DNA from: an uncultured Methanosarcinaceae archaeon
GTDB taxonomy: Archaea; Halobacteriota; Methanosarcinia; Methanosarcinales; Methanosarcinaceae
Reading direction: 5' to 3'
NCBI GenBank assembly: GCA_963733675.1
Contig: CAVTET010000012.1
Span: forward strand, 256,001-320,000
Length of the DNA: 64,000 bases
Both the position numbers and the translations under genes were made by a program. Positions 5,040 to 57,487 of this stretch are shown here, piece after piece. The notes beneath the pieces are model-generated. The model was not told where the DNA came from. It worked only from the letters and a program-made list of their open reading frames with translations, and searched no databases. Each line of letters opens with the position of its first letter. Position 1 is the first letter of the stretch.

Positions 5040-5070
5040 ATACATAGTCTTTGTGATAAAATCTATGTGT
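5040..5070 (+). repeat. Dispersed 31-bp palindromic site, copy A
   Basis: ATACATAG TCTTTGTGATAAAAT CTATGTGT. Confidence 0.75.
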
Positions 5071-5456
5071 AAGTGAAATCAAAAAATCCTCTTTTGTAAT
5101 GAAAGGCAGGGACGGAGAACGGTCATTTTTACAGAATTTTTAGTACACTGCCAAAATAAATCCATGATCATTTTTAGATAGTTGTTTTTAACCTTACAAT
5201 ATAGTTTTATTGGATTGTATCTGAGTCCAAACTAATTTTTTTGAGCAACTGCCTTGTAATTTAAAATGTTATTGTACTGATGGCCCTTTAAAAGTTCTGA
5301 TAAGTTCTACAAACAAAAAGAATCTCAAAGCTATTGGGATAAATTATAAAATATAATTTTTAAGTAGAAATGTTTAATTTATAACATGAAGCATTAAATC
5401 ATGTATATTTATTTAGTCATTTATTTATCATTAATTTTTAAATCAATATCAGGAGA

Positions 5457-6080
5457 TTGGATATGAACACAGCTGAATGTTATGAAGCAAGTCGATTGCA
5501 TAAATTCTTAAAGGTTTTAGTAATCACTGCGATGGTATTTTTAGTGCTAGTGGGTATCGCAGGTGCGACGAAGGATTCAGATGCTTGGAACGCCAAAGGA
5601 GTTGCTCTTGATAATTTGAATAAATCCGATAAAGCAATAAAAGCTTATGACAAAGCAATCGAAACCCACCCACGAAATGCGTCTGGTTGGTCTAATAAAA
5701 AAGATACTTTAGTTAAATTAGGCAAGTCCGGTGAAACACCGAAATGGTGGGTTAAATCGAAGAAAATTGATTCAAAAGCTTGGTACAATAAAGGAACTGA
5801 TCTATTTTACTTAGATCAATTCGATGGAGCAATAACAGCATATGACAAAGCAATTGAAATTAACCCTCAGGATTCAAATGCTTGGTACAATAAAGGCATA
5901 GCTTTAGGGAAATTAGGTAAGTTAGATGAAGCAATAAAAGCATTTGACAAAGTAATTGATATTAAACCGCATGATTCAAAAGCTTGGTACTATAAAGGAG
6001 TTGCTTTCAGCGCATTAGGCAAGTCCAATGAAGCACAAAAAGCTTGGACCAAAGCAAAAGAAATTAATTCAAAAGCTTGA
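5457..6080 (+). CDS. Secreted TPR-repeat protein, probably truncated by a nonsense mutation
   Basis: Signal peptide ending IAGA; AWYNKG TPR units; TPR frame continues past the stop (A*YNKGTLFDLNKFDEAIK). Confidence 0.85.
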   Translation: MDMNTAECYEASRLHKFLKVLVITAMVFLVLVGIAGATKDSDAWNAKGVALDNLNKSDKAIKAYDKAIETHPRNASGWSNKKDTLVKLGKSGETPKWWVKSKKIDSKAWYNKGTDLFYLDQFDGAITAYDKAIEINPQDSNAWYNKGIALGKLGKLDEAIKAFDKVIDIKPHDSKAWYYKGVAFSALGKSNEAQKAWTKAKEINSKA

Positions 6081-6697
6081 TACAATAAAGGAACTTTATT
6101 TGATCTAAATAAATTCGATGAAGCAATAAAAGATATGGTCTGGAATAACTGAGTTTACAGACACATAGTCAAAAATTATGAGATTTTCATTTTTTGCAGT
6201 GGAAACTACAGTTCCCAAAAATGGGTGATATAATCATTAATCAGATTTGTTCGATGACCCAAGGACAGAAATTGTATTCAAAAAAAACTTAATTTAGTTA
6301 TATGGTGTTTATAATAGCTTTCCTCAGGTCTTTAGAGTTTAGAACTAATTCAAGTTTAAATATAGATTGCTTTTTTAGGAAAAAGCTTAATGTTAAATTT
6401 TTGAAGATTTTCGAGAAAACTAAAAACATCATCAATATAAACTTATTTTTCAAAATTAAAATATCTTATGCGGAAGTAATTTTTGCTTAGAAACTATGTT
6501 TCGCATAATTAAAAATAGTGAAGGGAACCATTATAAAATAATAGCTTTCTAATAAATCTGTTAATGATTAGCGTACTGAGAAACTAAAAAATTATGGTTT
6601 GTATCAGATTGAATATATGAAACGAATCCAAAAATCACAGCATTAACTATAAAAAATTATTGAGGTGAACGATAAATGAGATTTATTAAAATACTAA

Positions 6698-7120
6698 CTA
6701 TTTCGCTGGTAGTCCTTTTATTACAAAGACGCCTGCTAAAATGGCTACAAAAAGAGACATCAAACTGGATACACAGAAGGTACCAATGGATAGAATAGTA
6801 TCGTGGAGTTTCAACATTATAGGCATCGCAGTGAAAATTTCAACCCTATAGACTATGGAAGTGGTTCCAAAGATGGTTGCAAAGTAAATTATGAAGAAGG
6901 AGACAATGGTAGCTTCAAAGAGGCTCACAGAATGTTGATTAATGATGGTTCCGCAGCTGACTCCCAAATCTGAAGCATATCCTTTATTGTACAAAGCGTC
7001 TGAATCCCGCGTAGCGCATGCGATACTCACTAGAAGCAAAAAAACCAACACAGTGATTCCCAAAACTGCTATGAAGGAATACCTTCTACTTGCTGTATCA
7101 TATCCTGCTTTTTTCATCAT
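6698..7120 (-). CDS. Hypothetical membrane protein with TPR-family signal leader, probably chimeric
   Basis: N-terminus MKKAGYDTASRRYSFIAVLG...ATRDSDALYNKG like neighbouring TPR genes, then unrelated hydrophobic sequence. Confidence 0.5.
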   Translation of the reverse strand: MMKKAGYDTASRRYSFIAVLGITVLVFLLLVSIACATRDSDALYNKGYASDLGVSCGTIINQHSVSLFEATIVSFFIIYFATIFGTTSIVYRVEIFTAMPIMLKLHDTILSIGTFCVSSLMSLFVAILAGVFVIKGLPAK

Positions 7121-7691
7121 TCAGCTCCAAGATGTTTGTTAAGATATAGCATAGGACAAAAATTAGGATTTTACCAAAATTTTGCATGCATATACCCAAA
7201 AAAATTAGGAGACTTTTGGCATATTATTTTTTAAAGTCTGTAGAACAGTTGAAACTTTGAACTTGAAAAGATAATACTCAAAATAATTAAAAGATAGATA
7301 AGTAGATGAAATATTAACAGAATTAAAAAAAACATTCTGTTTTGTGAAGTCTAAAAATAAATGAAAATTAAGAAATTATTTAACCTATAAATTGGATTTA
7401 TTTAATTTTTTTAGATAAAATTCCTTTCGCTATCCAAGCTATTGAATCCTGCGTCTCACCTACGATACTAACTAAGATCAAAAAAGATCAAAACAACGTT
7501 GAGAAATAATATTTGCTTAGGCTATTAAGAATATTTTTATAGTCCCAATCGAACTATCCTTTTTTATCAGCTTTTTGTGGGAGATAATGATTAAACATTA
7601 AGAATTGAAATCAAAAAAGCCACGAAGAAAAGATCGGATTTAATTGGCTTTTCTATCAAAGTAGACAGTTCTCGAGTTCCTTCCCATTGAC

Positions 7692-8777
7692 CTAGGTCGC
7701 CATTTTATTCTTCTGACTCTCCGTTTTTTCATTCTCCTCTATATCTTCAGTTGGCCCCATCAATCTAGCCAGCCATTTTGTTTCATCAAAACTTTCAAAT
7801 ATAATCTTCAAAATCAATGTCAGCGGTATGGAAAGCAGCACACCTGCAGTTCCAAGCACATAATTCCAATAGATCAGCGAAAGAAATAAGATACCTGGAG
7901 ATAATTTCAGGCCTTTACCTGCGAGTGAAGGGAATACAACGTTTTCTGCAAGCATATCAACAATTGAGATTACGATAATAATTGCAAGAGCACCTGCAGG
8001 CCCATATTTGAACAGTGCGAGCATTATGAGTGGAATAGAAGCTAGAACGAGACCAATGTAGGGGATATAACTGAATAGGAATATAAGGACGCCCCAGAGA
8101 ATCGCAAAGTCAATGCCTCCTATAAGGAGAACGACGGTAATTCCAACGGCTATGATAAGGTTTGTTTCTGCTTTTATGACAAGAAACCCTACCAAATTCT
8201 TGTCAAATTTTCTCATACTCATGTGGAGTTTGGATTGAGTTTCAAGTTCTGAATTCATTTTTCCAGGAGTATTGGAGGCATCTATCAACAAGAACGCGGT
8301 CGTAAGAATTATAATTCCAGCTGTTGTCCCGGCATTCAAAAATCCATTAATAATACTCGACATGAGAGAGATCACAGTTGATGCGATACCACGTAAAATC
8401 GAATTCGCAGAAAGCTCTCCTTGTGAGGGAATATAACGTGTGAGAATATCTATAAACCCCATCAACCGAGTTTGATAGATTGGGATCTGGTTCTCAAACT
8501 GGATTGCAGCTCCGAAAACCACTATCCCTAGGACTGCGATAATAAATGCAAATAAAAGAATCACTAGAAGAACACTCAATCCACCGGGAATACCCCGTCT
8601 TTTGAGCCAGCGGATATGGGGAGTAAGAATAAGTGCAGCAAAAACAGAGAAAAGAATGGTAGTAAGTATGGGGGCGATCGCCCTCATCCCGACAGTTAGG
8701 ATAACAATAAAAGTGCTATACATTAATATTTTAGCAGGTAACTGATTGCTGTTGATGCTCATGATTTGCGACTCCAC
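7692..8777 (-). CDS. AI-2E family transporter
   Basis: Multi-TM protein; FSYIPYIG, ENVVFP and GVLLSIPLT motifs. Confidence 0.9.
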   Translation of the reverse strand: MESQIMSINSNQLPAKILMYSTFIVILTVGMRAIAPILTTILFSVFAALILTPHIRWLKRRGIPGGLSVLLVILLFAFIIAVLGIVVFGAAIQFENQIPIYQTRLMGFIDILTRYIPSQGELSANSILRGIASTVISLMSSIINGFLNAGTTAGIIILTTAFLLIDASNTPGKMNSELETQSKLHMSMRKFDKNLVGFLVIKAETNLIIAVGITVVLLIGGIDFAILWGVLIFLFSYIPYIGLVLASIPLIMLALFKYGPAGALAIIIVISIVDMLAENVVFPSLAGKGLKLSPGILFLSLIYWNYVLGTAGVLLSIPLTLILKIIFESFDETKWLARLMGPTEDIEENEKTESQKNKMAT

Positions 8778-9476
8778 TCTATATTTTTAGAATAAGTTGA
8801 GCTTTTTTTATAAAAATTTGGCGCATATTTGATTGATTCATATCAGTGTTTTTATCTATATCTACCTTACAAATCGCTCATTTGTGCTCAGTTAAGAAAT
8901 CTGTTAAAAAGCCAAAATGACTACTGCAATAATCGATTATCTAGATTATGTTTCCATGCTTACAGAAAAAAGCAACAAAAATAATAAATTTCTTACAGAT
9001 CGTATCTTAACTGAACCAATTGGAGCCATGACGACGACATACTGAAGGTAAGATAAATAAAACACAAACAAGGCAACAAATAGGACAAGTTACAGAAACG
9101 CTATAATTTTCCAGTTTGATTTTCATGGAATCAAATCACAAATCTAGCTACCTTGTGGAATATAGTTTATAGTTTTTCGGAGCTCAGTCGTCCTTTATAA
9201 AGGCTTAATGAGGGTGCTAATAACAGAAAAGGTTGCTTACAGCGCTCGCTTGAATGTGGCTTGTAGGCCTTACTATCCAGGGTAGAGCCACGGACAAATC
9301 GACCTACGAATAACTGAAGATGTTGGCTTGCACATTGAGAATGCAGGATAGCCTACCTATTAGACAGTAGGTATTATTTTTCTCGAAGTTATTTTCCCGC
9401 TTCCCTTTACGTTTATTTCACTTGGTCAGTCAGCTTTTCACTGACTGTAGTTGCATGATCATATGCCATTCCAATC

Positions 9477-11829
9477 TCACTGTCGAGCCATGACAATACG
9501 CATCTCAGCTTCCTTGTCTTCTATCAGTTGGCCGCTCACGTCCACTGTCACGCTATGAATCTTGCCTGTGAACTCCAAAAAGGGGGGACGATAGTCTGGT
9601 GTGACTGGTGCTCCATGAACTGAGCCACAGGTTACTCCACCAGTTAACCCTAACGTAAGTGGAGTTGTCACTGGTAACATTTAGCTTGGCCGACTAACGT
9701 TCCGTCTATAAAGAGCTTAGCAATTCCAGGTGAACCCTTGCCATTAGCAAAATCTGGCTTACCGGTCACCTCAAACTCAAACCCGAGTTGATGTCTCCCT
9801 TCAGGAACATTCTCATTGAACTCTACATGATATAATGCTCTAGATACGTAATTGTGCACCCAGTGAAGTTTTCCATCTTTGATATAGAATGAATAACCGC
9901 CATCGATACCGCCATGAGAGAGCAAGATTCCTTCCACTCCCCCTGCAGGGATCTCGACATCGGCTATAATACTGTGGGGACGGTTGAGAACTTTGACTGC
10001 TGCATTTGCGGGAATCACCTGAGTTCCGGGATAATAGGTGTAGCGTGTTCTTTGGACTGCAATCTGTGGTCGATCATCGACAAAACGTAGAACTCCTCGA
10101 CCATCGATAGGTAGTACGTTATACTTTCCGGCTTCTGCATACCAGGTGGCAACCATCTCAATTAACTTTGGTCGATTATCTGTAGCAATATTGTAGTTCT
10201 CTGCCCAATCCTTCTCAATGTGGTAAAGCTCCCAGCCTTTTGCATCGAGCTCAGTCAATGTATCTGCAGAAATCGGTTCGCCGAAGAATTTCCCTGCTTC
10301 AGTGAACGAAGGACCAGGCCACGGACATACGGCACGCCAGCCATCATGATACAGTGAGCGGTGTCCCATCATCTCGAAGTACTGGGTGTGGTGCTTGGTT
10401 GGTGCATTGGAATCGTCGAAGGTATGTGCAAAACTTACCCCTTCGATAGGTGATTGACTTACACCTTTGATAACCATCGGAGGTTCGAGCCCTAGGCACT
10501 CCATAATTGTAGGTAACATATCGATAGCGTGGGCATACTGAGTGCGAATCTGGCCTTTAGCCTTAATTCCTCTGGGCCAGTGGACTATAAAGGGATCACT
10601 GACACCACCACGGTAGGTCTCTCGTTTCCAGCGGCGGAAGGGTGTATTTCCAGCCCAAGTCCAGCCCCATGCATAATGATTATAAGTCTCTGGGCCCTCA
10701 AGTTTATCTAGGGCTGCGAGATTTTCCTCTACAGATTCAGGTACATTATTTAAAAACCTGGACTTGTTAATTGATCCAGTAGGACCACCTTCAGAGCTTG
10801 CTCCGTTATCTGAAATTACCATTATCAACGTATTCTCAAACTCACCAATATCTTTGAGAAATTGCAACAACCGACCAATGTGGTAATCGGTGTGTTCAAG
10901 GAACCCAGCAAAGACTCCCATCATACGGGCATAGAGTATCTTCTCCTCAGGTGTGCATTGGTCCCAGGGTTTGACATCTGGATCATGGCGAGATAGCTCA
11001 GTTTCTTTTGGAACGATACCCAGTCCTTTCTGCCGGCCTAATGTCTTCTCCCGGTAAACGTCCCACCCATCATCGAACTTACCTTTGTATTTATCTGCCC
11101 ACTCCTTAGGAACATGATGAGGAGCATGCGTTGCTCCTGGACAGAAGTACATGAAAAAAGGTTTGCTGGGTGCTATTTGTTTGGAATCAGCAATGAACTG
11201 GATGGACTTGTTCACTATATCCTCATTCAAGGTGTAGCCTTCTTCTGGAGTTTTGGGAGGGTCTATAGAATGATTGTCGTAATCAGCTCAGGGTAATACT
11301 GGTTTGTATCACCTCCTAAAAAGCCATAGAAGAGCTCAAAACCTCTTCCCAAAGGCCAACGGTCATAAGGTCCGGCTGCAGACATCTGTTCAGCAGGTGT
11401 CAGATGCCATTTGCCGATTGCAGAGGTGTTGTAACCGCATTGCAGAAGCATCTCCGACAAAAAACCATTTTCATAAGGTATATTACCGTTGTAGCCTGGA
11501 AAGCCAGTTGATCCTTCAGTGATACATGCCATGTTATTCGAATGATGGTTTCGGCCGGTAATTATGCACGAACGGCTAGGAAAGCACAGCGCAGTGGTAT
11601 GCATATTGGAATAGGCCAGGCCTCTCGCGGCCAAACTATCAAGGTTGGGTGTATTTATAGGACTACCATAGCATCCAAGTTGTCCAAATCCAGTGTCATC
11701 CAGCACAATGAACAGTACGTTAGGAGCGCCCTCTTTAGCTTGCAGTGGCTCTGGCCAAGCTGACCCCGACTGGTCTTCTGTACGTCCAATTACGCCTGGA
11801 AAAGTGGTTCCTGGTTTGTATTCTTTCAT
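9477..11829 (-). pseudogene. Cys-type arylsulfatase, frameshifted into three pieces (copy 1)
   Basis: PNVLFIVLDD, CFPSRSCIITGR, GKWHL and SDNG motifs spread over ORFs 11263-11922, 9668-11230 and 9477-9680. Confidence 0.92.
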
Positions 11830-12147
11830 TGACACATCTTTTCCTCCAATCGCTAATTGACATTTTGTAAAGCTCTGAAAGAGAAGGCTAAATAGGGGAA
11901 AAAACTTTATTATTTTGACCATTTTTTGTTAGAATTCGTAATTTGGCATGTCCACGAGTTTTTGAAAATTATAACCATAAGGCTCGTCCTACATTTATCT
12001 AAAAATGGGAAAAGCACTTGTTTTTCATATTTTATCAATGACTCAAGGATATGACTCACAATTTCTTGCCTGAAGATCAATTATTAAAAAAATAAAGTGG
12101 TTTCCAGAAAGTTTACTCTTGGTAGAAACTGATTCGTTTGGTGGACT

Positions 12148-12636
12148 TTATTCTTCTGCAAAGGTTGCACGCATCTTTTCTTCTTCTTCCTTTGACAGGT
12201 TGGTAGCAATGACTTCAAACTTGGATTTTTTCATAGCCTCTACTACCCTATCTTCTACGGCATCGCTAGTCATAAGGAAAAGAGCTGAAGTTCCTTCAGT
12301 CACTTTGCTACGGATAGATTTTATGAAATCTTCATCGATCCCCACATGTTTCATTGAACCCACTACTGCACCTAACGCAGCCCCGGCGGCTAGACCAACC
12401 AAAGGAATAAAGAATATAATCCCAAATAATAGCCCCCAAAAAGCGCCGCTCAGTGCACCTATGCGAGTTAAATTGATCAAATGCTTTATTTTTGGTTTAG
12501 TTTTTCCTTTAACCCATGTGACTATAGCTGCATCGTGTAGTTTTATCATTTGTTGTTTACTTAAGTCCTCAATCACTTCAAGTTCATTTTCTGCACCATC
12601 AGCGGTGTCAAACTTAAGAACTGTTAAAGTTGCCAT
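12148..12636 (-). CDS. DUF1269-family membrane protein
   Basis: DAAIVTW, GALSGAFWGLLFG, GIDEDFIK, GTSALF and TNLSKEEE motifs. Confidence 0.85.
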   Translation of the reverse strand: MATLTVLKFDTADGAENELEVIEDLSKQQMIKLHDAAIVTWVKGKTKPKIKHLINLTRIGALSGAFWGLLFGIIFFIPLVGLAAGAALGAVVGSMKHVGIDEDFIKSIRSKVTEGTSALFLMTSDAVEDRVVEAMKKSKFEVIATNLSKEEEEKMRATFAEE

Positions 12637-13032
12637 TACTTAAACTCCTTTTCTGCTTTTCAGATTTATTCTTTGGTTTATCATGTCAGTTTGTTGACCA
12701 AGGTGGAACTTATTGTACATTTACTTTTGTAAGTTTAACTGAAATAAATTGATATATATCTTTAGTATATAAAAAGTTTATATTATTTATAACGGCGATG
12801 GCGTCTCTACTGTAGAAAATTTTAAAAAACTTATAATTTTCACAAGTAATATTTTCACCATTAATGAGAATATGACAAATTTAGAAGTTCATTGAAATCC
12901 TCTCTAGACTAGATTAGTCTATTAACTTAAAGTTTATAGTCCTAAACATATACTATGTATACATAACTAAATCAGTTGATGATGTTCATTGTATTGAAGC
13001 TGGTTATTTAAACGTAAAACAGAGGTTGGAAA

Positions 13033-13450
13033 ATGCAAACATTGGAAAAGAAAATAAAACATTAATTGAAAATTTTTAATTGCTCTTCGAAGGAAAGGAG
13101 CAGTAAAAACAACAATTATATAATACCTATACTATGCAACTTGGATGATCGAGGAACTTCAAGAACTAGGATTCAATGAGACCTTGGACAAGCTTGAACC
13201 TAATATTTTTTATTGAGTGCTTATTTCTTTTTAGGATGAAAGAAAATTATCTTCCGGCACTATCCAAAATTACAAAAAACGGTGTGATTTTTTTAAATGG
13301 TCCACAGGTAGTAACCCCACTAAATGGATTATGTATCTCAAGCTAAAAATAATTGCAAGTACTGTGCAACCCTCCAATATACTGACCAAAGATGAGTTCA
13401 CCCAGCTTCTTGAAGGCTGTAGACATCTATGGGATAAAACAATCATTGTT
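13033..13450 (+). pseudogene. Tyrosine recombinase/integrase N-terminal remnant
   Basis: From 13235 reads DERKLSSGTIQNYKK..FFKW..STVQPSNILTKDEFTQLLEGCRHLWDKTII, the core-binding domain plus the LTxxE..RD lead-in to box I; stops upstream; catalytic domain missing. Confidence 0.7.
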
Positions 13451-13842
13451 TCTTCTTTTATGCTACTTCGCTGTCGATTTAATCCTCATCTTTAGTTGAT
13501 GGGGGGTGACATATAGTTACAATCAGAAAACTGATAAAAGTATATATGAAGCAGTGGGCTTTTGAGAAAAGCATTTATAAACTATCCAAAAAAGTATCCC
13601 AACTCCACTGTAGAAAAAGTCTCTGAATTTGTTGCAAATTCCAACAAAAAGATTCCAGAATATGAGAGAGAATTGGATATCCTATAGCATAAGAAAAAGC
13701 TAAAGAGCTCTATAAATGTGGGCAGCTGTGATATAATAATCTTACTTGAGATATATTATCTCAAGTTGAGTAAATAAGGATCTAAGCTCCTTTTGTTTGG
13801 GGGTTATCTCTTAGTTAGGTCCTTGATAAGCTTTCATTTTCA

Positions 13843-13903
13843 GATACATAGTTACACTAAAACATTTTATTCCAGGATTTATGTTTTAGTGCATTTATGT
13901 ATC
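13843..13903. repeat. 61-bp bulged inverted repeat
   Basis: GATACATA-gtta-CACTAAAACAT...ATGTTTTAGTG-catt-TATGTATC; the outer arm matches the 31-bp site half. Confidence 0.65.
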
Positions 13904-14223
13904 ATGATATATTAGCTGAATATGCTTTAATATATATATTTTGCAAATATTCTATATCTTAATATAGACTACTAAATATTACACAATGTATGTAATCCTA
14001 ATCTTATGAACCATGGACATCACAAAGGGATTAGCAATAACAATAAAAAATAATTCTCAGAGCAAAGAAATTATTTATAAAACAACAAAAAATTATAGAA
14101 AATTCCGATAAATTACAATTTTATTCTAGTTGTTTATAAAGTTTATATAGTAGCATTTTTACTCAAAGGTAAATCGGAATTCATTATATAAAAATATATT
14201 ATTTATAATATAATATTAACTGG

Positions 14224-14523
14224 TTAGTAGTAACCCCAACCGTCATAAGGGTAGCTATGCCCCAGGGATAACCCTATGCCCCAGGGATAACCTCCCCAAC
14301 CGCAGCCGCCGTAGGCAATTAAAGGCATGCCCCAGCCGCCATAGCCCCAGCCACCACAGCCACCATAGCCGCAGTCATCATAGCCCCAACCGCCATAGCC
14401 GCCTCGGCCACCATAACCGCCGTGATGTGCACTAGCTGCTACAGCTGTCAAAGATACTACAAAAAAAGCTGCCAGCAAAATAGACATTCCTTTCTTCATG
14501 TCATTAGAAGATAGTTTCAACAT
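14224..14523 (-). CDS. Small secreted Gly/Tyr/Trp-rich protein (conserved-leader family, member 1)
   Basis: Signal peptide ending AASA; GGAG RBS; GGYGGWG-rich mature part. Confidence 0.8.
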   Translation of the reverse strand: MLKLSSNDMKKGMSILLAAFFVVSLTAVAASAHHGGYGGRGGYGGWGYDDCGYGGCGGWGYGGWGMPLIAYGGCGWGGYPWGIGLSLGHSYPYDGWGYY

Positions 14524-15032
14524 TTGTTACCACTCCTATTTTATTCAATTTGATACAATGTAAATCAGTTTAAGACTTACGAAGTTTAACAGCAAAAAAA
14601 GTAGTTGTTAAATGTGTAAGTCCTGAATTTAAATAAACACCAGATTTTATCACATGCTATAACTGATCTACATACAACTAGTGAAAAATCGGAAGTTTAT
14701 CAAAACTCTCTCTATTTCATAGCACGTGCCTACTCAGTACCAAAGCACAGTGATGAAATGTAAAAATCACTCGATTTTGGAACCTAGTCGTGTATGCCAA
14801 TAGAAGGTGATTTTTAATTATATCATCATTACATTATTATTATCTAATGAATATAAAATAGCAAGAAATATAAATACAGGATGTGAGTTACTCATATTTA
14901 ATAACTGTTAAAAATATTTATTAACTCATCATACTATTTGTCTTCATGTTAAAATTATCTTTTTCTCAATCAGACTGAATCGTTAATAAGTCTGTTTTCC
15001 TGGATTAAGGTTTGAATATGGACAGCTTTATT

Positions 15033-15063
15033 ATACACAGTTTTTGCATCAAAAGCTTTGAAT
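15033..15063 (+). repeat. Dispersed 31-bp palindromic site, copy B
   Basis: ATACACAG TTTTTGCATCAAAAG CTTTGAAT; start of a ~240-bp block homologous to 16011-16255. Confidence 0.7.
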
Positions 15064-15110: not shown

Positions 15111-15191
15111 ATGGAGCTTATGGAATTCCTAGAGCATATGGAGCTCATGGAACATTTGGAATTAATTAGCCTAAACAACTATCATAAATAA
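15111..15191 (+). CDS. Putative 26-aa micropeptide MELMEFLEHMELMEHLELISLNNYHK, copy 1
   Basis: Frame and stop position conserved in three dispersed copies; could instead be a 9-bp DNA repeat. Confidence 0.4.
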   Translation: MELMEFLEHMELMEHLELISLNNYHK

Positions 15192-16010: not shown

Positions 16011-16044
16011 GTGCACAGTTTTTTTTGTTCTAAAATCTATGCAT
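16011..16044 (+). repeat. Dispersed palindromic site, copy C (T-run expanded)
   Basis: GTGCACAG TTTTTTTTGTTCTAAAAT CTATGCAT. Confidence 0.75.
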
Positions 16045-16091: not shown

Positions 16092-16172
16092 ATAGAGCTC
16101 ATGGAACTCCTAGAACATCTGGGGTTCATGGAACATCTGGAACTAATTAAAGCAAACCACAAGCATAAATAG
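16092..16172 (+). repeat. Copy 2 of the MELME micro-ORF element
   Basis: (I)ELMELLEHLGFMEHLELIKANHKHK*; first codon ATA, second ATG at 16101. Confidence 0.55.
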
Positions 16173-20168: not shown

Positions 20169-20170
20169 AC

Positions 20171-24710: not shown

Positions 24711-24875
24711 GATTTACCTTTAAATTTCTCTTAAATTTAGAATGTATTTTAGTTCCTTAAAAAGCCTTTATTTCCTATCAGAAAAGATATTTTACCCTGT
24801 TACACTCAGAAGAATTAAAATGATAACATCTGCATCCAGCAAATCCAAAAATCTTGGAGATTCGTCATCAACATG

Positions 24876-38269: not shown

Positions 38270-38300
38270 TTGCATTGTTTTTGTATGAAAACATATACAC
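38270..38300 (+). repeat. Dispersed palindromic site, copy J (degenerate arms)
   Basis: TTGCATTG TTTTTGTATGAAAAC ATATACAC; central 15 bp identical to copy H. Confidence 0.55.
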
Positions 38301-38663: not shown

Positions 38664-38694
38664 TCATGGATTTTTGTGCCTACATTTTAACTTT

Positions 38695-45289: not shown

Positions 45290-46408
45290 ATTTAGTATAC
45301 CGTTATATTAGAGAAAGTTAGTATATATATATCGAAAAACATTTCACATTAACTATACTAGGTTTAATCCACCTTATGTTGTGAAGCTCAATAATAAAAA
45401 GATCAGCTGGATCATTGCTTAAAAGAAGAATGTAGAAAAGACTTCCGATACAGCTGATTTCAGCAGATCTTGAAGGAATATTGCGATGCTTATCAGGAAT
45501 CTCTTATTGGCGCGAATCTCGGTCTGGCAAAAAAAGTTTTTTGATACTTGCTCTTTTTTAAGAATTATTCAGTGACTCATGAACACGACTGAAATAAAAT
45601 TGAATGCAATCTACTTAACTCTAATGTATGGGGTATGTTTTAGGTCATCTGCTAGGTTTCTCCTCAACTTTTGAGTCTGCCTTTAGCAAATATCCTTGAT
45701 CTGAAAGATTAAGACTTTGCTTTTGGATCCTCTGCGATTTCTGAATATAACGTCGTTATTCCAATTGATTATTCTGCAGCAATTTGTGGGGATGGAAATT
45801 TCACCGAAAACCATTATTATTAAGTGGGTTATATTTTTCAGGTATATTTGTGCTATAAAATGGAACTACTTCAAGTAGACTATTATGCGATAAAATAAGA
45901 GATCTCATAGTTTTTTGTATGAATCAGTGTATCAGTTTTTTTTAAGCAACTACATCATCAACTATTTAAATATATCTACTTTGAAATTGGTAAAAGTTAC
46001 TGTTTTGAGTTTGATGGAATCTGTACTGAAGTTAATCTTATTAATTTTTGCGTTGACTCCGAACAAAATATTCTCCTTCAAAATGATGCAGATTAAAAAA
46101 AGGTATTACAGCATGAAAAATTATTTAAAGAATACTAAAACATTAAAGAACAATTATAATTTAGTGAACTGTAGATTGACGGAAGTTACATTGGAAGTGT
46201 GGGTGATGGTATATTTTTCAATGCAACTAAAAACTGTGTTGAAAACCAGGGGAATTCGGTAGAAAATTAATCTCATGAGCAAATGAAAATATTTGACTTT
46301 GAATAATTACTTATATCCACAGCGATGAAGCGAATATATAGTTGCTTGCAGTGATGTTTGCTTGCGCCAAAGCAACTTGAATTTTTTCTTCTAGCTATAT
46401 ACACTATC

Positions 46409-46442
<34 letters not shown>

Positions 46443-46637
46443 ATATTGTTATGGAGTTAGCTGGAAATGTTAAAGCCAATTAAATCATTCAAAAATCTTA
46501 TGTATTAAGTTATATTTTGATGACATTTTTGAAAATCAGGTTCTAAACATAAAATTTTGCATTATTTATTATGTCGTTTATATATGCTCTCAAAAAGAGT
46601 CGCAAAAAATATTAAAGAGCAGTGCATTTTGGACTTG

Positions 46638-47501
46638 ATGACATTCAAAGGGCATGCCTGTGCATTCGGGGCAGGAACGATAATAAACGCCATAGCTACA
46701 TGGAAAGGTGCAGCATTCGGGATTAATTTGAAAACATTCGCAGAGGTTAGACTTTCCGAAAGTGAAATCGGGATTTCAGGATCTATTGAAGAGATACCTG
46801 ATGGAGATGTTCGCCTCATAGAACTCTGCGTTGAGCTGGTTCTCGAAAAGTTTGGGCTTGAGTTAGGTGGTACGGTAAGAACAAGAAGCGAAGTCCCTCT
46901 TGCAGGCGGGCTCAAAAGTAGTAGTGCTGCAGCAAACGCTTCCATCCTTGCAACTTTACGTGCCATTGGCAAGACTCTATCTCCCCTTGAGATTGTGAAA
47001 CTTGGGGTAAGAGCTGCAAGAGAAGTAGGAGTTACGGTAACAGGAGCCTTTGATGATGCCTGTGCTTCTTTCCTGGGAGGAATTGTGGTGACTGACAACC
47101 GAAAAATGGAGCTAATCAGACGCGAAGAAATTGAATCTAAGGTTTTTATATTTGCACCTGACAGGAAGGCTTTCAGTATAGATACTGATCTCAAACGTTC
47201 TAAATTGATCGCTCCATATGTAAAAATTGCATATGATCTTGCCCTGAAAGGTGACTACGAACGAGCCATGACACTTAATGGATTCCTCTACTGTGGGGCT
47301 CTTGGTTTTGATATGGAATACATGCTAAAAGCTCTCGAATGTGGAGTAAAAGGAGTGAGCCTATCCGGAACCGGTCCTTCATATGTAGCACTCGTGAAGA
47401 ATGAGCAGGCAAAAGAGCTGAAATCTGCTTGGGAAAGCTGTGGAATGGCAGGAAGGATCATAGAAACCACTATAAATAACAGGGCTGCAGTATCCTTATG
47501 A
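46638..47501 (+). CDS. aroK: Archaeal (GHMP) shikimate kinase
   Basis: GLKSSSAA, VTGAFDDA and LSGTGPS motifs; likely ATG at 46638. Confidence 0.95.
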   Translation: MTFKGHACAFGAGTIINAIATWKGAAFGINLKTFAEVRLSESEIGISGSIEEIPDGDVRLIELCVELVLEKFGLELGGTVRTRSEVPLAGGLKSSSAAANASILATLRAIGKTLSPLEIVKLGVRAAREVGVTVTGAFDDACASFLGGIVVTDNRKMELIRREEIESKVFIFAPDRKAFSIDTDLKRSKLIAPYVKIAYDLALKGDYERAMTLNGFLYCGALGFDMEYMLKALECGVKGVSLSGTGPSYVALVKNEQAKELKSAWESCGMAGRIIETTINNRAAVSL

Positions 47502-47803
47502 AGGAAGTGACTCTCTTGACCGAACTTGAAGCTGTCCGTGAAAAAATCGAAAAAATTGATATGGAGATCCTTACCCTTATTGATAAAAGAGTCAATATGG
47601 CTGAAAAGGTGCTTGAATCAAAACGAATAAATGGAACTTCAATAAATGACCACAAGCAAAATGAGATTGTAATCAGCAGGGCCTTAAATATCTCAACAGA
47701 GCTCAATCTTGATCCGGGGTCTGTAAAGGCTATTTTTGAGATTTTAATAAGGATGAGTATTGAACGTCAGAATGAGTTGAGTGGCAAAGGAAGCCTGCCT
47801 TGA
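47498..47803 (+). CDS. Chorismate mutase (AroQ type)
   Basis: LEAVREKIEKIDMEILTLIDKR motif; coupled to aroK. Confidence 0.9.
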   Translation: MKEVTLLTELEAVREKIEKIDMEILTLIDKRVNMAEKVLESKRINGTSINDHKQNEIVISRALNISTELNLDPGSVKAIFEILIRMSIERQNELSGKGSLP

Positions 47804-47821
47804 TTCCTAAGAGGAGCGAAA

Positions 47822-48217
47822 ATGGTCGATATTTCAGTGATTATGGGTTCTGAATCTGACAGATCAATCGCTAATCGTGCGACATCTGTGCTTGAAAAGA
47901 GCAAGTATACTTATGAAGTGATGGTTATTTCCGCGCACAGGAATCCGGAAGAGCTTGATAGTTACATTTCAAGCACTGATGCAAAGGTCTTTATCGCAAT
48001 TGCAGGTTTATCGGCAGCTCTCCCTGGGTTTGTAGCTTCCAAGACTAAAAAACCTGTAGTTGGAGTTCCCGTGAGTGCAAAACTTGGCGGACTAGATGCT
48101 CTTCTTTCCATAGCCCAAATGCCTAAAGGGGTACCTGTCGGAAGCGTTGGGATCGATAACGGAGCAAATGGTGCGTACCTTGCCTTGAGAATTCTAGATT
48201 TAATTGATAGCTATTAA
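47822..48217 (+). CDS. purE: N5-CAIR mutase
   Basis: IMGSESD, SAHRNP, AALPG and QMPKGVPV motifs. Confidence 0.95.
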
Positions 48218-49285
48218 ATACTTAAGGGACTAACGATCTTCATTATTTAATGGGCTTTGTATGATATCTTATTTTTCAAAATTTAGAACGTTTTTTACTC
48301 CCGATATCGTTGCGTATAATACAGATAATCTCCATATTTCATGGATATTTTTTTTAAGAATCTAACCAATCAATCTGGTTAAGTTAGTAGATTAGGAAAA
48401 GTATTTTTAGAAAGGCGCATCTGAATTTTGAGCGTTTTTGGGGAATGAGAAGTAATTGATGATGAGATTTACAGCAGAAAAGGATATTTCTCAGATACTT
48501 TGCTATCAATATGGAGGTCATTCTTTTAAAAACAAGAGTATGCTGTTGTTTAGCGCACATTTTTTTCATGCTTTATACTTTTTTGGATAAGATATTCAAA
48601 AATAATTTTCTGGCCAGGAAACTATTTTTGTCTATGAGTTGTTGGAAATCGTAAGTCAAAACTCTTTTTACATTTTGTCGTAAATCAGATGTGTAATAGG
48701 TTTTCATATTTAACTAATGAGTCAAGAACAGACATGGTTCATTATTTTTAGTTTTTGAATCTTGCTAGTGAGTTATTGAAAATAGCAAACAAAAGAGTTT
48801 TTCGAATTTTTCCCTAAAATGAAAGGATACTCATTTTTCAGATTTAATCAATGACCTAATGCCATGAAGTATTTTTTTGTCCGTCATTAAGTAATTGAGG
48901 TTTCCATAATTAATTTTCCAAATGATGAAGTTTGTGTTTTCATACACTAAAGTCCATATGTTCTAACTAATATCACTTAAGTGCGGAACGAAAAAGAGGT
49001 GGCCATAAATAATGAGTGATGTTTACCCACAAAAGTCACGTACTTGCTTCTGCACTTCGTTCTTTGTATTATATCGTTTTTGTCTCTCAGTATGGCTGTA
49101 AGCTTGGATATTAGTGTTTTTGGACAAAGTATATTCTAGGATGAAAATAGTAACTATTTAGAGATACACTATATAAAATATCACTAAGTTGATTTTTGAA
49201 ATAAAATCAACCAAATAATGGTGGAGAACTATTTTTTGACTATCCATTTTTTTACTCAGGTTTAATTTTAAGTTGTTCCTTTGAG

Positions 49286-49435
49286 GGTTCCGTTGCAAAA
49301 ATAATTTTACTGCCTTTTTAGGCTATAACTATTGCTTTTTTGTATAATTATTGACCTGTTTATGGAATAGAAATATCCTAATTGTGAAAGTTTTTTCTGA
49401 TTTTGCAAGGGAGCCAGATTTTTTGCAACGGAACC
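49286..49435. mobile_element. IS6-derived MITE (~150 bp)
   Basis: GGTTCCGTTGCAAAAA at 49286 and TTTTTTGCAACGGAACC at 49419-49435, plus a second degenerate right IR at 49401-49415; no ORF. Confidence 0.8.
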
Positions 49436-49519
49436 AATTGGTTTATTACTGTATAAGATCCGTTCTATACGGCTGCATACTGGCAATTAATTACTCCAAT
49501 GTATTATGAATTGTTACAA

Positions 49520-49816: not shown

Positions 49817-49847
49817 ATGCACAGTTTTTGTGTTAAAATATGTGCAT
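49817..49847 (+). repeat. Dispersed 31-bp palindromic site, copy E
   Basis: ATGCACAG TTTTTGTGTTAAAAT ATGTGCAT. Confidence 0.8.
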
Positions 49848-50047
49848 TTTCCAATTTTAGAGCCAGATTGCCTAATGTTTATCTGATAATGCATAAGGTC
49901 TAAAATCTCCTACCATGCAAGCAACTTCTGAGAACGATTCCAGAAAATTTCTTATTTATACCAAATATGTGCTATTTTGTCATCATAACTATCAGCAGAG
50001 CTTTTAATCGAGTTGCTATAAATACTATAAATGCTATAATATTTATA

Positions 50048-50242
50048 ATGTCTGAAACAACAACTATCCAGATAACAAAGCAAATTCGCGAAGAGCTACA
50101 GAAAATTGGAAAGATGGGAGACGATTATAATAAGGTTATTAATGACCTTATAGTCGAACACAATAGGAATAAATTAGCAGAGCGCGGTGAGAAATTTATA
50201 AAAGAGCATAAAAATGAGTTTGTGAGTATCGATGACCTTTAA
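50048..50242 (+). CDS. Antitoxin (RHH-like) of a type II TA pair
   Basis: MSETTTIQITKQIREELQKIGKMGDDYNKVI...FVSIDDL; overlaps the toxin start; CTATAAAT repeats upstream. Confidence 0.75.
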   Translation: MSETTTIQITKQIREELQKIGKMGDDYNKVINDLIVEHNRNKLAERGEKFIKEHKNEFVSIDDL

Positions 50243-50513
50243 AGTTTTTGTGCATCCCACTATTTTTGTTAAGGCTCCCGCAGAACGAGAAGAACATATA
50301 AAATCTGCAATTAAAGAGCTTACAGAGCCATTTCCAGATAGCGACGAAAACAAAAAAGAATTTCGAGGAACTCGATTAGTTACATATCGTCTGAGATTTG
50401 GCGACTATCGAGTTTTCTATCAAATTGATGAAGAGGAGAAAAAAGTATACGTTTTCGATATTCGATCGCTGAACAAGCGCATAAAAAATATGGGAAAATT
50501 TAATATTAATTAG
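50232..50513 (+). CDS. RelE/ParE family toxin
   Basis: YRLRFGDYRVFYQIDEEEKKVYVFDI motif. Confidence 0.85.
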   Translation: MTFKVFVHPTIFVKAPAEREEHIKSAIKELTEPFPDSDENKKEFRGTRLVTYRLRFGDYRVFYQIDEEEKKVYVFDIRSLNKRIKNMGKFNIN

Positions 50514-50616
50514 CAAAACTTCCACTAGGGCTTTTTTATTTTTAGATTTTCAGGAAGCAGTTTAATGTTCACCTTCTGTTCATCTGGATCAAATTTTGAA
50601 TGTGAATTCCTTGATT

Positions 50617-50647
50617 ATGCATAGTTTATGCTATAAAACCTATGCAG
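50617..50647 (+). repeat. Dispersed 31-bp palindromic site, copy F
   Basis: ATGCATAG TTTATGCTATAAAAC CTATGCAG. Confidence 0.75.
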
Positions 50648-52617: not shown

Positions 52618-52648
52618 ATACATAGTTTTTGTGGCTAAAACTGTGTAT
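52618..52648 (+). repeat. Dispersed 31-bp palindromic site, copy G
   Basis: ATACATAGTTTT TGTGGCT AAAACTGTGTAT (12+7+12, one mismatch). Confidence 0.8.
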
Positions 52649-52816: not shown

Positions 52817-52847
52817 ATGCAGAAGTTTTCATACAAAAACTATGCAT
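52817..52847 (-). repeat. Dispersed 31-bp palindromic site, copy H
   Basis: Reverse complement ATGCATAG TTTTTGTATGAAAAC TTCTGCAT. Confidence 0.75.
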
Positions 52848-53386: not shown

Positions 53387-53872
53387 ATATTCACCCTGTG
53401 TAATATTATATATTATTTTTGAAAACGATTTATGATGTGATAGAACATGGTATCCGCAGAATAGACAAAAATTGATTGCTTATCTACTAACTGATTTTAT
53501 AGTTAAAATAGTTTGAATGCCTTAGTTTCATCTAGTATACAAAAATGATTAAGGTTATAAATCAGTTATTAACAATGCTTGCTAGGAAGTTTCCACATCT
53601 GCCGCAAGTTTCAAAGTACTCACATTAAATGAATTTTAGCGATCTTGTCTAAATATACAAATAAGTTGGAAAATGGACATATTTAGTATTCTAAATTCCA
53701 TATATAATTCTTTAGCCTATAATAGTTGGATTTAATTAATAGGAAAAATCTTTCCCCAAAAAAGTAAAATTTTATCCTTTTAAAGGTTACTTGACTAGTT
53801 ACAGAAATCTACTATTTCAGATAATTTATATAACGCCGAAAACTTAGATTGTTGTTATTTTTAAATTTATTT

Positions 53873-54100
53873 TTATTTTTTGAGCATTTCCTGAACTTTT
53901 TTAATATCCGCGATAGCTTCTCTTTTAATCTCGATCATTTTTTCCATACCGGATATTTTCATTTCCAAAATTTTTATGAATTTATTCATTCTCATTACTG
54001 CAACTTCTTTCTTTTGTTCTGTAGTCAGAAGCTCCCACATCTCAACCATAGCGGTCTCCATTATAGATCCTTGTCCTATCATAGAATGTTCTTGGCACAT
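53873..54100 (-). CDS. Small Met-rich coiled-coil hypothetical protein
   Basis: GGAG RBS; coherent 75-aa helical ORF. Confidence 0.65.
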   Translation of the reverse strand: MCQEHSMIGQGSIMETAMVEMWELLTTEQKKEVAVMRMNKFIKILEMKISGMEKMIEIKREAIADIKKVQEMLKK

Positions 54101-54724
54101 GTTAAAATATCTCCTTCATTGATAATATTTTTTGAATTTACATTTCAAAAATTAACCAAAATATTAGTACATTTAAATATTAGTGTATTTTTTATTTCTC
54201 ATTCCAACAAATTGCTTATGGTGCTTATATAAGCAATTTATTGCAACTAGACGTTTATTACGTCCATATGTTATTTTTAATTAATGACATAAAAAATAGT
54301 TTTTGAATGAAATTTACTTTCGAATTAAATGTTTTAAACCTATAAAAATCATTATAAATATTAAATCGTTTTTTGATTGTGAAAAATATTGTCAGGCATT
54401 GTTTTTCGATTAGAAGCTATTTTTCATATAATTAATTTAAAATAATTATGTGAACAATTGTAGATTGTATACACACCGAACAGACACTTTAAAAGATCAA
54501 GAACTAACCGGTATAGTTGAATTGCATGGAAGATGTTGGTCTTAGTTCGAGTTAAATATGCTTGCGCCGGTATATATTCGAAGTGACTGTATTTGGGCAT
54601 ACAGTAGAGACAACTCTTCCAAGCTTTCTTCCAACCATTTTTACTTCGCTTGATTATGCATAATACATATCTTTATACACAACTTCTTCTTCCAAAAGGT
54701 AAAAATTAAGGAGTTGATGGTTTT

Positions 54725-55434: not shown

Positions 55435-55464
55435 AAAAAGAAGAAATAATAATTATATAGATCT

Positions 55465-56039
55465 GGCATTGTACCAAAGGTTCTGTAAAGTGTGGTTGAT
55501 TCTATATCTTTTTCTTCCCAATGAAAAAACAGGGATTCTCAGTTTGTTAGCAGAATGAGTTAAACAGTTAAGGAAAAATAAGCTAAACGCATCGGGTTGA
55601 TTATCTCACTAACTACACAATCAAGATCTTATTGTTGTTAACTTCATGTTGATAATGTAGTCTCCATGCATAATTAAAAGGGTTGGGCACCTAATTTTCC
55701 AGGGCAATAACGATATTCTCTAAGGTAATCAGTATTGTCCTAGTTCTTTTTTTGAACTATTATTTAGAATAATTTATTCTATCAATTATATAATATATTT
55801 AATCGTATTTGATAGTGGAATAAACCGTTATAGATATATGCACAGGAAGTTGTGGTTGGGTTTCCTGCACATATACAACAAATTAAATTTTTGTTTATTT
55901 CATCTCCTTTTTCTTTCACTACAAAAGAATTGGTTCCGTTGCAAAAACTTCAGGATAAGCATGTGAACCTATAAGTAACAAATAAAAGTCAAAAGATTCT
56001 AGAGTCAATCCGATTTCACAGAACTTTTGGTGCATTGCT
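55465..56039. mobile_element. Decayed IS6-like remnant containing a solo IS6 end at 55932-56003
   Basis: Imperfect IRs GGCATTGTACCAAAGGTTCTGTAAA and TTTCACAGAACTTTTGGTGCATTGCT; inner GGTTCCGTTGCAAAAA plus ~55 bp similar to the IS6 right end. Confidence 0.5.
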
Positions 56040-56216
56040 GCAGATATATCTTTTTAATATGGTAATTCTATTCTATTTAGTTGATACAAAACTAAATTTT
56101 CATTATAAAGGAAAGGGATTATGTCTTCACTTTAGAAAGCTGTTCAAACGACAAATTTCTAGAGAAATCATTAAGGATTATAATATAACTATATAGAGCA
56201 CTATAATTTATTGACT

Positions 56217-57038
56217 TTATTTTTCATAATTCAATACTTTGTCAATCGTATCTACGTATTCAGTTCTGATTCCCACATTTTTTTCTATATACTCTTTAGC
56301 ATTCACGATTTCCTGTGCTCTCTCAACAAAAATAAAATCACTTAATTTTCTTTCTACGTATTTATATGTCACAAGCCCACTGTTTTCCCTGGGAATTAAA
56401 AACAGTGTTTTCCCTCCAGCTTTTGCTGCCTTGGCTTTTTCGAGCACTCCACCTATCGCACCAATATTTCCTTTGCCATCAATAGTACCTGTAATAGTAA
56501 TGCTGTTATTAAGTTTAATATTGCTATCAATTGCGGAAATAGTAATAAGAGTCATGAGAGCGCCTGCACTTGGACCTTCAACACGCGGAATTTGATTTTT
56601 AGCGTTAATACTGAATATAACATCACTGCTTGAAAGTGATTTCCTAGTTTTGTTCTCAGCTACTAAGACTGCGGTATTTCCTGCATCCTGGAAAAGTACG
56701 TCCATGAGAGGAGTTGTCTGGACAAGCACACGGCCTTCTCCTGGCTGGATTTCAACAGAAACATCAACCATAGCACCTTCTTCAGCAACTGTCGAATCTG
56801 GTTGTATGGCTTGAAAGACCGCAGGTCCTTGGAGAGTAGCGAATCCCTTTATGCCTGATTTATTATTTTGATTGATTTGCGCCCTAATGTCTTCGTTTTC
56901 CTTTTGAAGATTATTTATACGGATTTGCATTTCCTGGACTTGTTTTTTTTCAACTGAAGGCTGTTCTCCAACTAAGACAAAGTGAGCATTTGCAACAAGC
57001 GAGAGGATCAATAGGAAAACAAGAAATTTAGATTTCAT
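56217..57038 (-). CDS. Secreted Lon-like (S16) serine protease domain protein
   Basis: Signal peptide, coiled coil, EGPSAG catalytic Ser, ITGTI and IGGVLEK catalytic Lys. Confidence 0.88.
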   Translation of the reverse strand: MKSKFLVFLLILSLVANAHFVLVGEQPSVEKKQVQEMQIRINNLQKENEDIRAQINQNNKSGIKGFATLQGPAVFQAIQPDSTVAEEGAMVDVSVEIQPGEGRVLVQTTPLMDVLFQDAGNTAVLVAENKTRKSLSSSDVIFSINAKNQIPRVEGPSAGALMTLITISAIDSNIKLNNSITITGTIDGKGNIGAIGGVLEKAKAAKAGGKTLFLIPRENSGLVTYKYVERKLSDFIFVERAQEIVNAKEYIEKNVGIRTEYVDTIDKVLNYEK

Positions 57039-57107
57039 ATACCAACCATCAAGAGTTTGTTGTAGTGGTATTTATTCCTTCTTTTTGAAGATTTTGTGAA
57101 ATTTTAG

Positions 57108-57325
57108 TTACTTCTTATGCTGGCAATTGCAACAAGTATAGATGCCTTTTTTGTAGGAATAAGTCGCACGTTTCTCAAAATGCCTATTATTGAACCTGCG
57201 CTCATTGTAGGATGTGTAACGTTTATTCTGGTTTTTTTGTGTAGCGATCATAGGATATAGGTTAGGTCATTTCTTTGGAAATGAAGCCTAAATTCCAGGT
57301 GGCCTGATTCTTATAGGACTTGAAA
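57108..57325 (+). pseudogene. mntP: MntP manganese efflux pump C-terminal remnant
   Basis: LLLMLAIATSIDAFFVGIS...IVGCVTF...GHFFG...GGLILIGL. Confidence 0.7.
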
Positions 57326-57453
57326 TCAATTCATTGATATTTAGTAATTGATTAAAACAAGAATCAATTAGAATGTAATGACTTTTTGAACTTTAATAAA
57401 CCCCATGAGCCAATAGTTATGCTAACAAAGTTATGTCTCTATTGTTTTCAGTG

Positions 57454-57487
57454 ATGCATATATTTTTTTGTGATTAAATCTATGTAT
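57454..57487 (+). repeat. Dispersed palindromic site, copy I (expanded)
   Basis: ATGCATAT ATTTTTTTGTGATTAAAT CTATGTAT. Confidence 0.6.

Follow-up and report, generated by a model that had tools for sequence, protein, structure and literature searches.

A directional 31-bp palindrome expanded in a Methanosarcinaceae genome and its candidate small tyrosine recombinase

The palindrome and the closest described systems

Short sites of the tyrosine-recombinase type punctuate accessory DNA in Acinetobacter plasmids; these pdif sites, which belong to XerC/XerD and have chromosomal dif as a relative, bound discrete modules, toxin-antitoxin modules included, that turn up again in other contexts (PMC6449649 and PMC13141974). 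Insertion sequence (IS) elements adjoin such sites (PMC10132070). Integrons, including archaeal ones, combine a resident tyrosine recombinase with many cognate sites on small cassettes in co-directional clusters, as described in a preprint whose main text does not contain the word Methanosarcina (10.1101/2022.02.06.479319). The present analysis concerns a stretch of 64,000 nucleotides (nt) from an uncultured Methanosarcinaceae archaeon (G000:C12:256001-320000, where G000 labels the genome under study; hereafter the window), in which a palindrome of 31 base pairs (bp) is dispersed between genes. In the reading favoured here, at a probability of about 55%, the palindrome would be bound by a tyrosine recombinase of about 200 amino acids (aa), strands would be exchanged there, and the paired palindromes in front of the recombinase gene would also be autoregulatory. 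No description of the motif or of the small-integrase sites was found in the literature searched, which included passages of PMC8371274, PMC4158269 and 10.1101/2022.02.06.479319.

The original prediction, made from the window alone, was of an archaeal pdif- or integron-like system. As with pdif modules, short sites of the tyrosine-recombinase type here punctuate accessory DNA, at least one toxin-antitoxin module recurs in other contexts, and IS elements adjoin the sites. The pdif sites flank modules in inverse orientation, whereas neighbouring sites here are mostly direct (20 direct vs 6 inverted below 3 kb), as are the two ends of the toxin-antitoxin cassette. The sites are moreover chromosomal and about 170 in number, neighbours share a spacer in 1 of 28 cases, and XerA is not the candidate enzyme, which is a dedicated recombinase of 200 aa. 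Integrons differ in other respects. The attC sites of integrons are 57-141 nt long and are folded single-strand substrates; the site here is 31 bp with no covariation between its arms, no single array lies beside the integrase, and the protein, 200 aa and catalytic domain only, has neither IntI-type features nor an N-terminal domain.

Cre-loxP and XerA-dif are similar in having a palindromic core with arms of 12-13 bp and a short asymmetric centre, beside a recombinase gene in a (pro)viral element. They have one site per replicon and full-length two-domain enzymes, whereas here two sites lie ~83 bp apart, the protein is a catalytic domain only, and a lineage-specific expansion has reached ~170 copies. 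Recombinases of the FimB/FimE type are DNA invertases of about 200 aa whose sites lie beside the gene and overlap a promoter region. They are comparable in size, in the absence of a separate N-terminal DNA-binding domain and in the position of the sites, but no invertible segment was identified here, and the 52 nt that separate the palindromes look like too little DNA for an inversion. The system would work most like pdif modules and integrons, yet on the differences given belongs to neither, and in site geometry and placement it resembles Cre-loxP and XerA-dif.

Abundance, architecture and distribution of the site

The consensus is ATRCAYAG-N-TTTT-N5-AAAA-N-CTRTGYAT, or in short form ATRCAYAG-N15-CTRTGYAT. 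The half-site pattern has 17 matches in the window vs 4.11 +/- 1.93 in shuffled sequence, and none of 100 shuffles reaches 17. Genome-wide, at a total length of 31 (both 8-nt arms, at most 2 mismatches), 126 matches are found vs 10 in an order-3 Markov simulation, with smaller excesses at lengths 30 and 32-34; the comparison with shuffled DNA proposed along with the original prediction thus came out clearly for the motif. The genome (3.92 Mb, 36% G+C, 15 contigs) contains 171 sites when no more than 2 mismatches are allowed over the 16 arm positions, the inner T-run and A-run are both required, and overlaps are removed. Exactly 31 bp long are 110 of them, and the sites are spread over at least 11 contigs. 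The window holds nine, where ~2.8 would be expected from its share of the genome. Nearly all sites (169 of 171, vs 49% of random positions) are intergenic by a crude gene caller of our own, based on codon usage, which calls only 51% of the genome coding; this agrees with the originally noted confinement to accessory intergenic DNA. The intergenic regions that host them are long, with a median of 1039 nt vs 510 nt overall.

The low called coding fraction, ~51% by so simple a caller, goes together with a lineage that seems unusually repeat-laden. The DNA between palindromes is mostly a mosaic of multi-copy pieces; other copies typically cover a fraction of 0.7-1.0 of it.

Each site can be divided into one AG-T-TTTT-G half paired with one AG-R-TTTT-A half, and its orientation was set from this internal asymmetry alone (T-G half vs R-A half). 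The absolute orientation score is at least 2 in 87 of 110 sites vs 66 after shuffling of the halves, which bears out the predicted directionality. An orientation by position weight matrix of the flanks was discarded as misleading, the 'CAnTGAAA' flank being just one more family of downstream sequence. The ten copies originally reported in the window all hold the motif, and nine pass the genome-wide criteria, the copy at 38270 failing. Seven had been given as exactly 31 bp; six of the nine are, and that at 38270 would be the seventh. They are listed below with the features that adjoin them (ORF, open reading frame; the lettered families are those of downstream sequence).

4288-4911: IS240-type transposase ORF (DDE_Tnp_IS240, IS6-family)
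About 50 nt left of the palindrome at 5040: IS6-family inverted-repeat end
5040-5070, plus strand: 31-bp palindrome with its T-G half at left and an orientation score of +4
15033-15063, plus strand: 31-bp palindrome with degenerate right arm, heading a family A unit
15111-15191, plus strand: 26-aa acidic small ORF (MELMEFLEHMELMEHLELISLNNYHK) within the family A unit headed by 15033
16011-16044, plus strand: 34-bp variant whose T-run is longer, at the head of a second family A unit that follows the one at 15033 in tandem
27981-28013, minus strand: 33-bp palindrome at the head of a leftward-reading family E leader
38270-38300, no strand assigned: degenerate copy, right arm mismatched, failing the genome-wide criteria
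49817-49847, plus strand: 31-bp palindrome with score +4 that forms the left end of the toxin-antitoxin cassette
50617-50647, plus strand: 31-bp palindrome, right end of the toxin-antitoxin cassette, direct with respect to 49817, score +4
52618-52648, no strand assigned: 31-bp palindrome, arms perfect, internally without direction (score 0)
52817-52847, minus strand: 31-bp palindrome, score -3
57454-57487, plus strand: 34-bp palindrome, 'pal1-like', heading a family D unit
57542-57570, plus strand: second, degenerate palindrome 54 nt past 57454-57487, mirroring the two-palindrome layout upstream of small integrase genes

Information content is limited to the 31 bp, that is, to ATRCAYAG, one free base and TTTT on each side of 5 variable bases. 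Of the originally proposed ~12-bp arms around a 7-bp spacer, the arms stand at 12-13 bp (ATRCAYAGNTTTT), conserved through TTTT/AAAA, and the spacer is corrected to a truly variable centre of 5-7 bp. Two inverted arms around a short centre have the geometry of tyrosine-recombinase core sites of the lox, FRT and dif types. The commonest central 7-mers of the oriented 31-bp sites begin with TG, as had been noticed in the window, and TGCTATA occurs in 22 of the 110.

Covariation between the arms is absent. Positions 3/29 form 50 Watson-Crick pairs vs 48.0 expected and positions 6/26 form 40 vs 46.3, while pairing is depleted at 9/23 (17 vs 33.4 expected) and at 15/17 (22 vs 41.4); the anti-correlation at 9/23 is due to the real T-G/R-A asymmetry. 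Since variable arm positions do not covary, the half-sites appear to be read independently as duplex DNA, and the palindrome is most likely a double-stranded site recognised by a protein dimer. A structured nucleic acid, whether an RNA or single-stranded DNA hairpin acting as terminator, as stabiliser of the repetitive extragenic palindromic (REP) kind or as an attC- or IS200/IS605-type end, is very improbable. About 12 of 15 arm positions are indeed complementary in most copies, and some sites closely follow stop codons, that at C4:800856 lying 7 nt past a 647-aa gene; but compensatory change is missing at 3/29 and 6/26, pairing is depleted at the two further position pairs, no Rfam family reaches its gathering threshold at the sites, and the site heads units, rather than ending them. 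The hairpin, terminator or attC reading was rejected for the want of arm covariation and of an Rfam match.

Of the 59 genomes of the genus, 49 (G000 among them) carry the motif; a reversed-pattern control gives 0-1 per genome. Most genomes of the genus have 1-12 copies; the subclade around G000 has 23-88, with 65 in G000 itself at no more than 1 mismatch. A related palindrome with ATAGCAAC-type arms shows no such expansion, occurring in 0-2 exact copies per genome, so that expansion in this clade is confined to the ATRCAYAG type.

A small tyrosine recombinase with paired palindromes

In the low-copy genomes, strict motif copies repeatedly lie ~115-137 nt upstream of an ORF of 202 aa that matches only the Phage_integrase catalytic domain (PF00589, residues 25-181, E 1.9e-10). 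The layout consists of palindrome 1, a stretch of 49-57 nt (~52), palindrome 2 (29 nt, its centre like TTTAAATA), a further 18-30 nt and the integrase start; from centre to centre the palindromes are ~83 bp apart. It is found in proviruses, viral contigs and chromosomal loci across the genus, the paired palindromes being seen at loci L003, L004 and L019-L023, in diverged subfamilies at L027 and L031-L038, and on viral contigs L056 and L063. Among four viral-contig relatives read, two show paired palindromes (one with GACAAC arms, one with ATAGCTAC arms) and two have none. A 757-bp unit is common to two paralogous loci, with the integrase as the sole gene inside it.

Subfamilies at 46-66% protein identity keep the layout and the inner TTTT..AAAA, but their arms differ (ATAGCAAC, ATAGCTAC, ATACGAAC, ATACCAAC, ACTACAA, GCAGTAG, ATCAGG and GACAAC). 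In the clearest of them (ATAGCAAC, ATAGCTAC, ATACGAAC and GACAAC) one arm sequence occupies all four half-sites of the locus. Similarity between the arms of palindromes 1 and 2 is 0.69 within a locus vs ~0.60 between loci, a value reached in none of 5000 permutations, and protein identity is correlated with arm similarity (Mantel r = 0.39, reached in none of 2000 permutations), figures that are conservative but noisy, several of the 33 loci having been mis-assigned by the automatic palindrome picker with its shift-tolerant scoring. Such concerted change of four half-sites is unlike neutral drift and therefore indicates a co-evolving dimeric binder; as the paired palindromes change their arms together with the recombinase subfamily, the palindrome is most probably the recombinase's own site. 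On this sequence evidence the ~200-aa recombinase quite probably binds the palindrome. The predicted tyrosine-recombinase target has thereby gained, besides a fitting geometry, a candidate enzyme whose upstream arms change with the protein.

The residues R56, K86/K88, R146, H169, H177 and Y178, corresponding to the Arg, Lys, Arg, His and His-Tyr to be expected in an active enzyme, are invariant in 11 diverged members. The predicted fold (predicted local distance difference test, pLDDT, 83) is nearest to XerA, integron and Tn1549 integrases, with XerA as the closest solved fold; 5hxy, 4a8e and 1drg were among the entries in the fold comparison. No PDB sequence match was found for the small integrase, and its database homologues are named as Methanosarcina proteins. 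An identity as XerA or IntI was ruled out, as scores against the archaeal XerA model NF040815 (16.7-23.8 bits) are far below its cut-off of 220 and both IntI-type features and an N-terminal domain are missing. G000 has 14 PF00589 matches, mostly larger integrases, plus fragments; a single small integrase is intact (C4:245815-246414), in a locus syntenic with that of a relative.

The integrase near 13033, for whose intact relatives the original prediction had suggested a comparison of att sites, is a degraded one of a different and larger type. At 12918-13500 the window contains its frameshifted remnant, which retains a SAM-like N-terminal region together with the beginning of a catalytic domain; PF00589 did not pick it up in the genome scan, and it does not belong to the small type.

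The palindrome might instead be an operator or promoter element, bound by the integrase-like protein or another dimeric factor only for the control of transcription, with units that are small genes or RNAs and copies multiplied by duplication or other mobility. Such a role alone is unlikely, though by no means negligible. It is favoured by the AT-rich centre (TTTTATAGC / TTTAAATA), which resembles the archaeal TATA box by consensus likeness alone, and by the end of palindrome 2, which lies 18-30 nt ahead of the aligned integrase start. The Shine-Dalgarno-like GGTGAT/GGAGAT is, however, so near palindrome 2 that a TATA box in the centre would probably start transcription inside it, and invariant catalytic residues are unexpected in a mere repressor.

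Sites as edges of repeated units and modules

Homology between loci starts sharply at the T-G (left) edge of the site and extends ~150-200 nt beyond the R-A edge. Of 1195 high-scoring segment pairs (HSPs) that span a site, 724 start in two 5-nt bins at or just outside the left edge of the palindrome, and in the whole-genome comparison 776 HSP starts fall in the left-edge 10-nt bin vs a background of 61. The observation that homology begins exactly at the site, made first between copies in the window, thus held both there (15033 vs 16011, 27981 in reverse complement vs 49817) and genome-wide. The predicted module size of 0.8-2 kb did not, the usual repeated unit being the palindrome plus ~150-200 nt. 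The palindrome is the common starting point of several unrelated downstream families (A-F). In family A an ORF of 26 aa starts 47-56 nt downstream of the site, and 17 genome copies keep its frame and stop, one with an in-frame insertion of 18 nt; such conservation suggests that the ~26-aa ORFs are probably a real family of small-protein genes. These ORFs, acidic and rich in Leu, Glu, Met and His (MELMELLEHMELMEHLELI...), lie in the window at 15111-15191 and 16101-16172 and in 17 copies genome-wide.

For an operator speak the position of the site at the 5' edge of units, with its internal direction pointing into them, and the conserved ORF at that distance in family A. Yet site direction is not associated with neighbouring called genes (57 of 119 co-oriented downstream, at a median distance of 435 nt). 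A promoter role for these neighbours is thereby weakened, and small uncalled transcripts could still be its object.

The beginning of unrelated families at one sequence would also be expected if the palindromes were insertion targets of unrelated small mobile elements, or an end like that of a miniature inverted-repeat transposable element (MITE) moved by another enzyme, the link with the integrase being then one instance among others. This has only a slight likelihood. Even between loci with 75% identity or more over the 60 nt downstream, mismatch in the right arm is 0.44, vs a baseline of 0.62 and 0.19 in the next 20 nt, so that the variable positions are nearly randomised, as in a target. 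The family A alignment has a sharp 5' edge at the palindrome but neither a terminal inverted repeat nor a second end motif at its 3' end. An insertion target would leave the origin of ~170 copies unexplained, as well as the change of arms on all four half-sites in step with the integrase subfamily.

Under the favoured reading of recombinase sites, mismatch was followed across the palindrome in 18 non-independent site pairs whose downstream 60 nt are at least 88% identical. It is 0.06 downstream, 0.22 at variable positions of the right arm, 0.21 in the centre, 0.41 at variable positions of the left arm and 0.62 upstream, equal to the baseline (0.62). As mismatch rises stepwise across the palindrome, the breaks in homology would lie inside the site.

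The sites are clustered, 57 of 160 gaps being below 3 kb where 12% would be expected. The excess of direct neighbours continues at 3-10 kb (12 vs 5), giving 32 direct vs 11 inverted within 10 kb, and is absent beyond (18 vs 18). The central spacers are diverse, with 61 distinct 7-mers among 110 sites. A weaker partner palindrome at +35..+95 on the R-A side accompanies 21 of 144 oriented sites vs 3-8 of 144 in control intervals; such sites, for example 57454 with 57542, appear to copy the layout upstream of integrase genes.

Two co-directional palindromes bound a toxin-antitoxin cassette (49817-50647) that occurs in four copies in G000 with unrelated flanks. Its cargo, at 49967-50513 on the plus strand, comprises two genes.

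49967-50242, plus strand: putative antitoxin ORF, no Pfam match
50232-50513, plus strand: ParE-family toxin (PF05016, E 2.8e-07)

Where related genomes match the cassette, the matches start within 49817-49825 and reach no further than 50646. The claim that sites bracket repeated modules holds for one toxin-antitoxin module, which lies between two direct sites and recurs in unrelated contexts; a 1.5-kb duplicate also recurs ending at sites. The cassette tells against an operator in that it ends in a site with nothing conserved to drive.

A larger element was found at unrelated insertion places in two genomes (G035 and G038), at 98% identity.

L050 (G038:C1:2684400-2704399), positions 36-14543: 14.5-kb element, also in G035

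The left end of this element is exactly palindrome 1. The small integrase lies at one end and a second integrase, of 385 aa and with a zinc ribbon, at the opposite one; the genes in between encode a Laminin_G_3-domain protein and include large unknown ORFs. The element is probably a provirus or an integrated plasmid. The first 3 kb are 99.97% identical between the copies (1 mismatch in 3002 bases). Their printed left ends differ at position 3 of the outer arm (G vs A), which is taken to be this single mismatch, the BLAST output being without its position.

IS6-family elements are frequent companions of the sites. Their multi-copy inverted-repeat ends (GGTTCCGTTGCAAAAA...) lie in the window at 49420-49436 and 55930-55952, and at several loci 15-90 nt from palindromes. 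The public RNA and DNA runs examined were Logan assembled contigs, whose ends fall at palindromes and IS ends because these are repeats. Contig joints have short sides (20-38 nt) that lead into IS6-family ends (49420-49436, 55930) or other copies, and metagenome contigs join the palindrome centres at 49833 and 52630 to an IS end, which suggests that an IS6-family element inserts in or beside sites. These IS ends in and near sites, at 15-90 nt or joined to them, fit an insertion target. In relatives, all of species other than that of G000, the only conserved blocks of the window are 38612-49285 and 20169-26003 (83-96% identity), the rest being multi-copy; the right-hand synteny break adjoins an IS6-family end.

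Three further features of the window touch none of the sites. A fluoride riboswitch (RF01734; 17223-17294, minus strand; 42.2 bits vs a gathering score of 34), the only Rfam match in the window, sits just upstream of a minus-strand ORF at 16809-17207. An element of ~850 bp at 19317-20169 (ORF 19380-20024, 214 aa) has more than 40 copies at 90-94% identity in the relative G062, where it is presumably an active IS. The region 53647-54628, with ORFs at 53849-54232 (plus strand) and 53873-54100 (minus strand), has a very high summed contig depth in metatranscriptome run X17 (2042 and 311 in two bins, elsewhere single or double digits), which is a hint only.

Proposed mechanism and its meaning

Several results weigh against recombination by this protein at the sites. 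The intact G000 integrase has a degenerate palindrome 1, and no scanned site is within 1.5 kb of its gene. A central 7-mer is common to the single neighbouring 31-bp pair already mentioned and to 4.6% of all pairs. Exchange of the Cre or Flp kind requires identical spacers, and as these are rarely identical between neighbours, simple Cre-like excision would be blocked; spacer diversity could equally keep site arrays stable, and would be harmless to an operator. Whole units recur in only 8 of 56 inter-site segments, 6 of the 8 having sites at both ends of the other copy, and neither the integrase module nor the 14.5-kb element has a palindrome at its right end. The synteny breaks of the window, at 38612 and, depending on the relative, at 48995 or 49285, are not at palindromes, contrary to the breakpoints that the original prediction had led one to look for. 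No recombinant junction, empty site, inversion or circle was seen in the material, which consisted of assembled contigs only, breaking at repeats. The noise in the statistics on arm change with the protein and the small set of pairs behind the mismatch gradient count on the same side.

The proposed binder would be a Methanosarcina-specific, virus-derived tyrosine recombinase of ~200 aa with a catalytic domain only, and the ancestral arrangement would be palindrome 1, ~52 nt, palindrome 2 and integrase gene. In the G000 lineage the cognate site would have multiplied to ~170 copies, clustered and mostly co-directional, each standing at the 5' boundary of a short repeat unit, with whole cassettes bounded by some of them. 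The recombinase would join DNA at the sites, where site-headed modules may be inserted next to resident sites and shuffled, and through the two palindromes before its gene the protein probably regulates its own expression as well. Both the integrase as binder and strand exchange at the dispersed copies are inferred. That the recombinase exchanges strands at dispersed sites, so that site-headed units insert beside resident sites in co-directional clusters, has about an even chance on the sequence patterns described.

A broader view, which must be regarded as tentative and rather doubtful, is that a Methanosarcina lineage turned a virus-derived lox-like system into a genome-wide platform for module shuffling, with one resident recombinase at a conserved chromosomal locus and ~170 directional sites. 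The small cassettes headed by the sites would comprise toxin-antitoxin pairs, genes for 26-aa peptides and non-coding units, and the diverse central spacers would be compatibility classes limiting which sites recombine. Such a platform would stand beside integrons and pdif modules as their counterpart in archaea, assembled from other components.

If the recombinase acts at the sites, the system would be a third, independently built route for moving short gene modules, after integrons and Xer/dif, and one native to a genetically tractable archaeal genus. It would also help to explain the repeat-rich, mosaic intergenic DNA of this lineage. It would further provide natural recombinase/site pairs of distinct arm specificity (eight arm types or more) that could be put to use as orthogonal tools for archaea. 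Even if the role were regulatory, ~170 genomic sites for a protein of recombinase fold would be unusual.

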